Notes: generated by a model not told the origin, from the letters alone. 64,000 bases of DNA from Dehalococcoidia bacterium (GCA_965237875.1 CBDEGP010000001.1:1051355-1115354), one strand, 5' to 3'. Shown: positions 40,009 through 42,572, counted from the stretch's first letter. A program made the numbers and translations.

Positions 40009-40209
40009 ATGGTCTGGAAGAGGATTTTAAGCGACTCAGACGAGCCCCGGCTCCCGTCAAACTCCACGGTCCCCCCAGCCAACAGAGGGGGCCAGGACCT
40101 GTTGACGGCATGGGCTTTGGCGCCGTTCATGCTCATCAAGCTGCTGCTGGCCCCCGTAAAGGCAGCCCTGGGAATCAACAAAAACCGGGAGCCGTCAAGC
40201 CGTAGATAA
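40009..40209 (+). CDS. possible small membrane protein (66 aa), unsupported by homology
   Basis: The ORF starts 19 nt after the adh stop. Third-position GC is about 75%, like real genes here. It has one hydrophobic segment, LLTAWALAPFMLIKLLLAPVKAAL. I recognise no motif. Confidence 0.3.
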   Translation: MVWKRILSDSDEPRLPSNSTVPPANRGGQDLLTAWALAPFMLIKLLLAPVKAALGINKNREPSSRR

Positions 40210-40225
40210 TGAGTGTCTTCAAGAT

Positions 40226-40381
40226 ATGACCGGACGTCCTGAGTGGTATTACGACCACCCTCCCGCCTGCACGTGCCAGGGCTGCCAGGATCGGCGGCTG
40301 GGAAGGCACCGCGGAAGCGGCAAGCAGGGGTTGCTTTCCAAGCTCAAAAAGGCGCTCTGGCCCTTCGGAAATCGCCGCTAA
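40226..40381 (+). CDS. unannotated 51-codon ORF encoding a Cys-rich basic peptide (MTGRPEWYYDHPPACTCQGCQDRR...)
   Basis: It falls below the 60-aa cut-off of the ORF track. Its first 21 residues are paralogous to the N-terminus of the CAP protein at 41233. The WYYDHPPACTC core differs between the two copies only at synonymous third positions (cac/cat, ccc/ccg, acg/acc). Third-position GC is about 76%. Confidence 0.65.
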   Translation: MTGRPEWYYDHPPACTCQGCQDRRLGRHRGSGKQGLLSKLKKALWPFGNRR

Positions 40382-40431
40382 AAGTCCTTCGGTCCCGTCA
40401 ATGCCGTCCATGTCGATAAGGAGGGAGAGTC

Positions 40432-41211
40432 ATGCCCAAAGGCGTCCTTCTGGTTTTCACCAACTGCAGCGATCCGGCCCGCCACGACGAGTACAACAGC
40501 TGGTACTGCCACACCCACTTCCCCGATCTCAGCGCCGCCTCTGGGTTCGTCCGGGCCAGGCGCTACGCCAACGCCTATCCCGATGAAGGCCCGACCCAGT
40601 ACCTGGCGGTCTACGAGGTGGAGGGGCCCGATGTAATGGACTGCATCAAAGACATCTCGCGCATCGGGTTTGGGGCCTACAGCCTGGGCAGGCACATCGA
40701 CTGCCTTGAGTCCGGTGGAGGCTATTACTTCGAGGAGATAGACCCGTCGCAGTACGCTCCTCTTGAGGTTGTAGACTATCCGCCGACGCCTGAGCGGTCG
40801 GACCTGCTGGGGATACCGGACTTCAAGCCCATCGCCCGAACCCTTCCCAGGGCGCTCCGGTTGGTGTTTTCGGACACCTCGGACCCGACCCGGGACGAGG
40901 AGTTCAACCGTTGGTACAGCCACACCCACCTGCCTGACCTGCTCCAGGCGGAAGGCATGACGGAGTCGGCCCGCTACCGGAACCTCGCCCTGGAGAGGGG
41001 CCCCGCTAAGTACCTGGCCCTCTACTGGTACGACCATCTCGACGTCAAGCAGGCGCTGCTGAATATGGGAAAGCTCGCCCTAGCCGCCCGGGAAAAGCAC
41101 ATGATTGACTGCCTAGACGTGAAAGGCCTCCACACATACCTGGAGATAGACGCCGACTCATACCCGCCCCCGGAGGTCCTGGACTATCCCAGGGAGGCGC
41201 CGCGACGGTAA
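40432..41211 (+). CDS. tandem-duplicated ferredoxin-like (EthD/DUF4286-like dimeric alpha/beta-barrel) protein, function unknown
   Basis: Two ~130-aa repeats each carry LLVFTN/LRLVFSD..DP.R..E[YF]N.WY.HTH.PDL...ARRY and end in EID....Y.P.EV.DYP. GGAGGGAG RBS. The fold assignment is tentative. Confidence 0.7.
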   Translation: MPKGVLLVFTNCSDPARHDEYNSWYCHTHFPDLSAASGFVRARRYANAYPDEGPTQYLAVYEVEGPDVMDCIKDISRIGFGAYSLGRHIDCLESGGGYYFEEIDPSQYAPLEVVDYPPTPERSDLLGIPDFKPIARTLPRALRLVFSDTSDPTRDEEFNRWYSHTHLPDLLQAEGMTESARYRNLALERGPAKYLALYWYDHLDVKQALLNMGKLALAAREKHMIDCLDVKGLHTYLEIDADSYPPPEVLDYPREAPRR

Positions 41212-41232: not shown

Positions 41233-42525
41233 ATGGGAAGACCAAACTGGTATTACGACCATCCTCCGGCCTGCACCTGCCGGGCATGTCAGGGCCGAAA
41301 GAGAATACGAAGGATAAGACCAATTTGGTTTTCGAAATCGGAACCTCGCGAAGGACCTGCCAGGAATCAACCGCCGGATTATTGGTCCCCTCCTGCGAGA
41401 CGCAGAAGCGGCTGTGTGGGTGGGATGATCAAGGTCGTCGCAATAGGGATAGGTTTACTGATTCTAGTAGCCGTGTGCAACGGGGTTTTTGGACGATTCT
41501 CGGATGAGGGTTACACTGTTCCACTCAACGGCGGTCCGATTCCGAACGTCACCTCAGCTGTCGTCACCAAAGACCTGAAACAACACATGCTGGTATTGAT
41601 TAACCGGGACAGGGACGCTAACGGCCTCAATCCCGTCGTTCTGGGATTCAACGAAGCGCCGCAACGTCATGCAGAAGACATGCTGCGGTATAGCTATCTG
41701 TCGCACTGGGGTCGGAACGGCCTTAAGCCGTATATGAGGTATACGCTGGAAGGTGGGACAGGACTTACTTCAGAAAACATCAGTGGTTTGGCTTGTCCCT
41801 TAACCCCTGGTGGGAGGTATCGCACTGTAGACCTCATGACAGATATTGAAGAATCACAAACCGGATTTATGCAAAGTCCAGGGCATCGACGGAGCATCCT
41901 GGACCCCGGGCACACGATCGTTCATTTGGGGATTGCATGCGATAAGTTAGGTTGCTCGGTGGTCCAGTTGTTCGACAGGGATTACCTCAGCTACATAGAC
42001 CTTCCGTCAATTTCGAGCGATGGTCTCCTTACGTTTACCGCCGAGTTTGTTGACGGGTTTGAGTTGTCCGGTGTGCAAGTCTGGTACGACGAAATTCCTC
42101 GCTCCCTCACCTTTGGCCAACTAGGGGCAGCCCATTCCTATTCTGTTGGACAGCGGCCTGTCGCCTCAATTAGACCCCCACTGAAACTGTATCAATATTA
42201 TAGAGAGGATTCTTTCACGCGCGCCCGGGAGCTTTCCCAAGACCCCTACAAAATTGACCCTAACACCGCACCTCCCCATAGGGTGAACAAAGGAGATTAC
42301 GAAGATTGTGTGGAACCTCCCAAAGCCACCACGCGGGTGGAAGAGACTGTGCCTTGGGTGACTGCTGACGAGTGGGAACAATCCGACGGAGAAACTTCCG
42401 TGTCCGCTACTATAGGTCCGGCAATGGAGTCATTCGGTCCCGGTGTCTATACAATTCTGGTGTGGGCTGACCATACGTTGGGTGAATCAGTTCCCGTGAG
42501 CGAGTATTCGATATTCGTGGAATAA
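41233..42525 (+). CDS. membrane-anchored CAP/SCP (YkwD-like) domain protein with cytoplasmic Cys-rich N-terminal motif
   Basis: The N-terminus MGRPNWYYDHPPACTCRACQGRKR is followed by a basic stretch and a TM helix MIKVVAIGIGLLILVAVCNGVFG. The CAP core follows (NRDRDANGLNPVVL...HAEDM...SENI...SPGHRRSILDPGHTIVHLGIA), then a ~190-aa unrecognised C-terminal region. Confidence 0.8.
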   Translation: MGRPNWYYDHPPACTCRACQGRKRIRRIRPIWFSKSEPREGPARNQPPDYWSPPARRRSGCVGGMIKVVAIGIGLLILVAVCNGVFGRFSDEGYTVPLNGGPIPNVTSAVVTKDLKQHMLVLINRDRDANGLNPVVLGFNEAPQRHAEDMLRYSYLSHWGRNGLKPYMRYTLEGGTGLTSENISGLACPLTPGGRYRTVDLMTDIEESQTGFMQSPGHRRSILDPGHTIVHLGIACDKLGCSVVQLFDRDYLSYIDLPSISSDGLLTFTAEFVDGFELSGVQVWYDEIPRSLTFGQLGAAHSYSVGQRPVASIRPPLKLYQYYREDSFTRARELSQDPYKIDPNTAPPHRVNKGDYEDCVEPPKATTRVEETVPWVTADEWEQSDGETSVSATIGPAMESFGPGVYTILVWADHTLGESVPVSEYSIFVE

Positions 42526-42572
42526 TAACCCTATTCGGGGCGGAATGGGGAAATTGACGAGCGAGGTGAAGC

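Follow-up and report, generated by a model that had tools for sequence, protein, structure and literature searches.

The window, a stretch of 64,000 nucleotides from the genome of a Dehalococcoidia bacterium, contains a genuine gene that lies below the annotation length cut-off. It encodes a protein of 51 residues (P0001), the basic-tail form of a Dehalococcoidia protein family marked by the motif H-x3-C-x-C-x2-C, here called the knuckle. The head formed by this motif is probably folded around zinc. Several P0001-type proteins have already been called in public collections, without receiving a name.

The translation given for the ORF in the first-pass annotation was reproduced exactly. P0001 has orthologues in each of the four remaining genomes of its genus, in two g12 genomes (g12 being a second genus) and in a single additional MAG. 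Across these eight genomes, pairwise dN/dS was 0.03–0.19, with the exception of one very close pair with few changes, which bears out the earlier suggestion of selection on the peptide. Variable sites at codon positions 1, 2 and 3 numbered 11, 10 and 37. All indels were multiples of three, none of them disrupting the frame. The position of the stop was fixed, while the stop codon itself varied (TAA, TAG, TGA). An antisense ORF overlaps the gene (40175-40411). By frame arithmetic, the third positions of P0001 are the first positions of the antisense ORF, and therefore it is the plus frame that is under selection. The Shine-Dalgarno sequence was weak (TGAGTGT), with GAG(G/T)GT conserved 12–17 nt upstream.

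Knuckle-only remnants do exist, as a 19-codon stub in one sister genome (G003) and a 31-codon stub at another locus (L068). P0001 could thus be imagined as the non-functional 5′ fragment of a decayed gene for a knuckle protein with a transmembrane (TM) helix, or as a chance ORF. The dN/dS values, the conservation of tail and stop, and more than 50 homologous small proteins of the same design argue against such a remnant, and bring this highly improbable reading close to refutation.

A second unannotated small ORF starts 18 nt past the ADH stop and ends 16 nt before the ATG of P0001 (Table 1). It was open in all five genomes of the genus, with omega between 0.09 and 0.21 and variable sites by codon position of 22/12/43. 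It probably encodes a small membrane protein and is transcribed together with the knuckle gene.

Table 1 Features of the knuckle locus and the third knuckle gene of the genome. Positions refer to the window unless a contig or locus is named.
Feature	Position	Strand	Description
Second unannotated small ORF	40009..40209	+	66 aa, hydrophobic core LLTAWALAPFMLIKLLLAP
P0001 knuckle gene	40226..40381	+	51 codons, stop included; N-terminal His-Cys3 knuckle and basic tail, net charge +8
P0001 knuckle core, residues W7-C20	40244..40285	+	WYYDHPPACTCQGC; proposed ligands H11, C15, C17, C20
P0001 basic hydrophobic/aromatic C-terminal tail, residues 33-51	40322..40378	+	KQGLLSKLKKALWPFGNRR; predicted helix 33-43
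P0003, tandem DUF4286/EthD-like protein	40432..41211	+	259 aa; PF14114 27.5 bits against a cut-off of 25.8, two stretches
P0002, single-pass membrane protein	41233..42525	+	430 aa; N-terminal knuckle, basic linker, TM helix, CAP-like ectodomain, C-terminal domain
P0002 knuckle-coding segment, residues 1-20	41233..41292	+	homology to sister genomes stops just beyond
Variable lower-GC cassette (linker, TM helix, ectodomain)	41297..42550	+	replaced between genomes of the genus
P0002 predicted TM helix, residues 65-86	41425..41490	+	hydropathy; positive-inside charge bias
Third knuckle gene of the genome	G000:C2:108923-109084 = L003:1423-1584	-	54 aa, knuckle and SEC-C motif; PF02810 E 1.8e-8

The N-terminus of the downstream protein P0002, MGRPNWYYDHPPACTCRACQGRKR, is near-identical to the start of P0001. 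With residues 1–30 of P0002 as the query in a six-frame search of the 3.25-Mb genome, the likeness pointed out in the first-pass annotation was recovered with 74% identity over residues 2–24 (E 1.4e-10). Within the WYYDHPPACTC core the two DNA copies differ at three sites in 33 nt (CAC/CAT, CCC/CCG, ACG/ACC), and all three differences are synonymous, as had been stated. The motif H-x3-C-x-C-x2-C occurred only five times in the six-frame ORFs of at least 40 aa of this genome, three of the five being members of the family; with a motif so rare, the match between P0001 and P0002 is far beyond chance.

Residues 4–20 of P0001 fit the motif preceded by R-x-(N/E)-W-(Y). The residues R4, W7, H11, P12, P13, C15, C17 and C20 were invariant in 52 basic-tail proteins, and the consensus of the whole family reads M-x-R-(P/T)-N-W-Y-x-(D/E)-H-P-P-A-C-T-C-x-x-C, followed by basic residues. 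A family profile of 30 columns, built from 23 members, found the P0001 ORF in its own genome with an E-value of 1.8e-15. Run against 1.84 billion protein representatives (50% clusters, ~15 billion proteins), it matched 179 clusters at E ≤ 1e-3. Among the matches listed, 147 of 149 cluster representatives had H-x3-C-x-C-x2-C exactly, and in 128 of these 147 the His lay within the first 20 residues (residue 11 in P0001).

No Pfam or NCBIfam model matched the knuckle motif, the only PDB sequence matched by the motif profile was a chance stretch of 10 residues in ComFB, and a literature search for the motif string found nothing. The ESM Atlas gave no usable match. The previous statement that no named family covers the motif thus held in Pfam, NCBIfam and the PDB, and judged by sequence the knuckle family is undescribed and new to the databases searched. 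Membership of P0001 in the SEC-C family was rejected, the model PF02810 (C-x-C-x8-C-(H/C)) giving no match at E ≤ 1. Longer, fused forms share too few 5-residue words with P0001 and all escaped a word-based homologue search; they were recovered by the exhaustive profile search.

The family members fell into four designs, counted here as representatives among the matches listed: (a) a knuckle plus a SEC-C motif (PF02810), ~52 aa long, with 17 representatives; (b) a knuckle followed by a short basic tail with abundant Leu, Trp and Phe, 42–60 aa long with a median net charge of +7, with 24 representatives; (c) a knuckle, a basic linker, a TM helix and a variable ectodomain, up to 868 aa long, with 85 representatives; and (d) a few proteins of varied sizes, with a DnaJ-type CxxCxGxG finger after the knuckle or with 2–4 knuckle repeats. 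P0001 belongs to design (b), and design (a) was regarded as the commonest form of the family. By Pfam scan, a CAP domain was present in 22 of 75 longer members and a DnaJ-type CxxCxGxG finger in 3 of 75. Three to four repeats of H-x3-C-x-C-x2-C were seen in P0006, P0105, P0082, P0119 and P0144, and a DnaJ-type CxxCxGxG finger directly after the knuckle in P0066, P0093, P0111, P0117 and P0152.

The genome studied here has exactly one gene each of designs (a), (b) and (c), so that the free-standing and the TM/CAP-fused versions, whose co-existence had been claimed, were both found. Only two SEC-C motifs were detected in this genome, one in the 54-aa knuckle protein and the other at the end of an 892-aa frame, which we take to be SecA; SecB was not detectable in the genome, which is 94.7% complete. 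Genomes tend to carry at least one small form, whether (a) or (b): of the two, only (b) in genus g12, (a) in most other genera of the family, and both in the genus studied here. At three loci we observed tandem paralogues with knuckle, TM helix and CAP domain (L061:3001-6049, L062:2992-6000 and L068:3001-6217), and at the last of these the 31-codon knuckle-only stub lies upstream of a full-length copy. The tandem copies and the stub are signs of duplication and decay in knuckle-TM-CAP genes.

The motif was present in 33 of 41 sampled relatives of the order and in 15 of 400 genomes sampled from the phylum, all 15 from the same class. Named records came from Dehalococcoidia/SAR202 MAGs, one Acidimicrobiia MAG and one unclassified MAG. 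The family is essentially restricted to the Dehalococcoidia, with nearly all of its members there. Strains of Dehalococcoides mccartyi encode a 67-aa protein with a knuckle and a TM helix, annotated as “hypothetical protein”. Since D. mccartyi is cultivable, the knuckle protein is within reach of bench tests. A 67-aa protein of the same kind is encoded at L077:1418-1618 (minus strand), between a phosphoglycerate-mutase-like gene and an aspartate kinase gene, and shares a cluster with the D. mccartyi proteins AAW39208.1 and ACZ62612.1. Some records of 67-aa homologues carry the label “cobalamin biosynthesis Mg chelatase CobN”, an apparent mis-annotation.

Four invariant ligands within ten residues suggest a single tetrahedral metal site. 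In the small t antigen of polyomaviruses (SV40 ST), a site with the same C-x-C-x2-C spacing and one upstream ligand (His122 or Cys103) binds a single Zn, and a helix begins with its last two Cys (PMC1945078), which makes a metal knuckle plausible for P0001. AlphaFold2 (AF2) predicts the same placement of the last two Cys in the P0001 knuckle. The upstream ligand is 8–16 residues away in small t, in contrast to 3 in P0001. Small t is a viral PP2A-binding protein, to which no sequence or fold homology was detected, and the comparison is one of analogy only. By that analogy, its CxCxxC site would be the closest chemical analogue of the knuckle.

The AF2 models, made with family alignments, had a mean pLDDT of 68 for P0001 and 73 for the SEC-C form, a moderate confidence only. 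Confidence was highest around the knuckle in both small forms (pLDDT ~80), and a helix was predicted from the second or third Cys onward (residues 18–28 in P0001, 17–29 in the SEC-C form). Foldseek found no match for the P0001 model in the PDB, and the Z-scores of a wide VIA-align search with the SEC-C-form model did not exceed 2.9, which is meaningless. From ligand conservation, the small t precedent and the AF2 secondary structure we infer that the P0001 knuckle probably binds Zn(II). The N-terminal module of ~20 residues, R-P-x-W-Y-Y-D-H-P-P-A-C-T-C-x-x-C, would fold round one Zn(II) held by His11, Cys15, Cys17 and Cys20. Pro-Pro would stiffen, and Trp/Tyr would pack, the loop that carries the His and the CxC, with the last Cys capping the helix. 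We class the knuckle as a putative minimal zinc-knuckle-type module, and as a small putative zinc protein.

A CxCxxC site can also take As(III) or other soft metals in place of Zn. Its thiol spacing is that of the As(III) site in R773 ArsR, and three-Cys As(III) coordination, in AfArsR, is the stated topic of a published paper. Together with the small size of the peptide and the 2–4 motif repeats in some family members, this could point to metal or metalloid handling, with P0001 serving as a buffer or chaperone that has one site for a soft metal (Zn, Cd, Cu(I), As(III)), and not as a structural zinc knuckle. We consider such a role unlikely: no ars, czc or cop genes were adjacent at the loci examined, the invariant His, Pro-Pro and aromatic residues look like those of a folded module, and buffering would ill explain an N-terminal head on many membrane proteins and beside SEC-C motifs.

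The second part of P0001 is its basic tail, in which Leu, Trp and Phe are abundant. Its hydrophobic moment of 0.52 was no higher than that of composition-matched shuffles (z -0.77; median z 0.64), and we therefore do not claim a demonstrated amphipathic membrane-binding helix; from composition, such a helix is a guess. The SecA-type SEC-C modules (PF02810; YecA/AscA, YchJ) are likewise tiny Cys/His metal modules on very basic peptides, but their spacing is C-x-C-x8-C-H/C and they are C-terminal, unlike the N-terminal H-x3-C-x-C-x2-C of the knuckle, and P0001 has no SEC-C motif.

The order of the genes for ADH, the 66-aa ORF, the small knuckle protein, the tandem DUF4286 protein (P0003), the knuckle-TM-CAP protein (P0002) and SDR was kept in the five genomes of the genus. 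In L040 (JAGWBJ010000006.1), the small-gene orthologue is directly followed by one ORF of 781 aa (P0163; 3184-5526), a fusion of a knuckle, a tandem DUF4286 part, a TM helix, a Pro/Thr-rich linker and a CAP ectodomain. The tandem DUF4286 part was 46% identical to P0003, and the CAP ectodomain 66% identical to that of P0002. A protein of 611 aa from an ENA metagenome (P0181) has the tandem DUF4286, TM and CAP parts without the knuckle; its CAP part resembles the cassette type of G001 and G003. From these natural fusions it follows that P0003 and P0002 are the split form of one transmembrane protein. P0003 would be the cytoplasmic partner of P0002, with the tandem ferredoxin-like domain inside and the CAP domain outside. 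Where the knuckle is present it stays N-terminal, even with 260 residues inserted before the TM helix, as in the L040 fusion. Tandem DUF4286/EthD-like proteins form a large paralogous expansion, with nine matches in the genome studied here and up to 12 in relatives; close orthologues of P0003 (89–91% identical) were found only in its own genus among the sampled relatives.

The L040 locus is collinear with the g12 loci (91–95% nucleotide identity) except for two insertions that flank the small gene. The first is the gene for the 781-aa fusion. The second (2416-2853) encodes a TM helix, a knuckle variant HDSTCRCPPC and a C-terminal J domain (PF00226 E 2.2e-10). With two insertions of knuckle type around one small gene, knuckle genes thus tend to cluster. 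The g12 loci lack the second inserted gene, which in L040 separates the peroxiredoxin gene from the small knuckle gene. No universal partner gene was found for the basic-tail genes, whose neighbors differ by lineage (a PDZ protein, Prok-JAB, a Lon N-terminal domain protein, GlmU, CorC). As judged from gene order and fusions, the local link of P0001 with the tandem DUF4286 and CAP proteins is real and this neighborhood of three genes appears to be a genuine functional unit.

The knuckle of P0002 had been described as fused to a TM helix and a CAP domain. The TM helix stood, on hydropathy and on the charge bias: the net charge of the N-terminal tail is +10, and that of the 30 residues past the helix is 0. 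The CAP assignment was weak for P0002 itself (PF00188: E 0.017, 16.4 bits, with a cut-off of 21.1) and clear in its homologues, which have 38–66% ectodomain identity and pass the PF00188 model (L034, 2.3e-9; L006, 6e-15). A PDB sequence search with the ectodomain profile gave no match. CAP/SCP/YkwD (PF00188) is the ectodomain type of P0002, not of P0001, and is shared with the 22 of 75 fused family members. P0002 is anchored by its N-terminal knuckle and TM helix, in contrast to the signal peptide or lipobox of CAP/SCP/YkwD proteins.

Homology of the P0002 gene to G001, G002 and G003 (82–84% nucleotide identity) broke at 41279-41297, just after the knuckle codons, and resumed at 42550-42560, past the stop codon. 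The segment between these breakpoints measured 731, 1757 and 1039 bp in the three sister genomes and 1253 bp here, and its GC content was ~0.52, compared with ~0.62 in the flanks. The CAP gene was a pseudogene in G003, with a CAG to TAG change at codon 20, leaving the 19-codon knuckle stub, and a 1-nt deletion. G001 carried a truncated version of 167 aa, and G002 a different ectodomain. The locus is an example of a variable surface-protein cassette exchanged behind a conserved N-terminal handle. While the CAP gene decays or changes, the small gene and the tandem DUF4286 gene remain ~90% identical within the genus, and the small gene is the stable core of the locus.

The resemblance between P0001 and the N-terminus of P0002 had been read as that of a soluble mimic: the free knuckle would imitate the cytoplasmic tail of P0002 and compete for a partner, for example the tandem DUF4286 protein, as a decoy or regulator. 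Consistent with this, the small gene adjoins tandem DUF4286 and CAP sequences in two different flanking contexts (in its own genus, g1, and in L040), and the natural fusions show knuckle, tandem DUF4286 and TM-CAP parts acting together. The co-occurrence of free and fused versions, put forward as a check, failed: the small-gene orthologues of G020 (93% complete) and G023 (90%), which are 82–88% identical, stand alone, with no second knuckle gene found by the profile at E ≤ 0.01. In both genomes, the small gene is flanked by a peroxiredoxin gene on one side and by queG on the other. At some 35 further basic-tail loci, no fused paralogue lay within 3 kb, and in G001–G003 the small gene is still under purifying selection where the CAP gene has decayed or been exchanged. 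With the small gene alone in g12 and the CAP gene unstable, a dedicated decoy of the neighbor's tail is unlikely. The likeness of P0001 and P0002 is not peculiar to this pair of neighbors, because the motif is invariant family-wide and any two members match about equally. As G020 and G023 hold the P0001 orthologue as their sole knuckle gene, P0001 appears to be autonomous of its fused paralogue.

The small ORF ends 50 nt upstream of the tandem DUF4286 gene, and 43 nt upstream of queG in g12, and its Shine-Dalgarno sequence is weak, as could be expected of a leader peptide (uORF) that acts in cis, its translation adjusting the genes that follow. We regard this as very unlikely, given that the whole peptide, including its C-terminal tail, is kept before unrelated genes (tandem DUF4286, QueG, Prok-JAB/PDZ), that the knuckle module also heads large proteins, and that a search for terminator or antiterminator structures found none.

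The fused forms share with zinc-dependent anti-sigma (ZAS) factors (zf-HC2, H-x3-C-x2-C) the layout of an N-terminal cytoplasmic His/Cys motif, a TM helix and an extracytoplasmic domain, and small Cys-rich peptides resemble RiPP precursors. We give next to no weight to the knuckle being an anti-sigma-like signaling head or P0001 a RiPP precursor. For ZAS, the ligand spacing differs, the knuckle segment has ~20 residues as opposed to the 80 of the anti-sigma domain, and zf-HC2 gave no match at E ≤ 1 for P0001 or P0002. No sigma factor gene is adjacent; the genome has three genes of the sigma-70 family (Sigma70_r2), found at C1:561 kb, C1:683 kb and C2:1650 kb, and each is separated by hundreds of kb from the knuckle genes at C1:1091-1093 kb and C2:109 kb. 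For RiPPs, no maturase-like neighbors were found in the neighborhoods examined. The missing zf-HC2 match and sigma factor neighbor led us to reject the anti-sigma reading, and the gene neighborhoods make a RiPP precursor or a leader peptide unlikely.

Heads of the zinc-ribbon type (PF13240/PF13248) top single-pass membrane proteins of Firmicutes and Actinobacteria. They are CxxC...CxxC ribbons. The knuckle-TM forms follow the same logic, a minimal metal module in the cytoplasm being connected through a basic linker and a TM helix to a variable ectodomain, but the knuckle has no such Pfam match, is restricted to a lineage and also occurs as free small proteins. In architecture, the knuckle proteins come closest to single-pass membrane proteins headed by an N-terminal zinc module, anti-sigma factors among them.

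For P0001 and its relatives, we favor a zinc knuckle joined to one of three anchors, a SEC-C motif, a basic tail, or a TM helix with a variable ectodomain, which may serve as a cytoplasmic interaction module near the membrane or the ribosome. The small forms would be autonomous, trans-acting proteins held by their tails at an anionic surface; we put forward this tethering only tentatively. In the genus studied here, P0001 may be co-transcribed with the unit of tandem DUF4286 and knuckle-TM-CAP proteins. The knuckle occurs in combination with a SecA-type metal-binding domain, a DnaJ-type zinc finger, a J domain or TM signal-anchors. The SecA-like (SEC-C) metal-binding domain of E. coli is reported to bind ribosomes and SecB (10.1101/613315; 10.1101/2020.07.21.215244). 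The joined modules and the distribution of the small forms hint at a role at the interface of ribosome, Sec machinery or membrane, where the tail of design (b) might replace the SEC-C anchor.

It is a long shot that the knuckle is a Dehalococcoidia-specific zinc module of a protein-targeting or proteostasis network, marking nascent N-in type II membrane proteins. If this were true, the knuckle, as the first element out of the ribosome, would mark and orient type II membrane proteins, and the small free forms would be trans-acting factors recognizing or regulating nascent knuckles, one tethered by a SecA-type metal-binding domain and the other by a basic tail. It would also explain the repeated fusions to SEC-C, the DnaJ-type CxxCxGxG finger and the J domain, and the knuckle-coding DNA would double as a 5′ handle for swaps of the ectodomain cassette.

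For now these findings are of modest practical value, which proof of metal binding and of a partner would raise. P0001 is a case in which length cut-offs hide a real, conserved gene, and a compact, lineage-restricted His-Cys3 module is now defined. Carriers of the module include the abundant ocean clade SAR202 and the organohalide respirer D. mccartyi. The strict N-terminal position of the module and its three interchangeable anchors suggest an unrecognized cytoplasmic function, proximal to the membrane or the ribosome, in a phylum whose envelopes are unusual.
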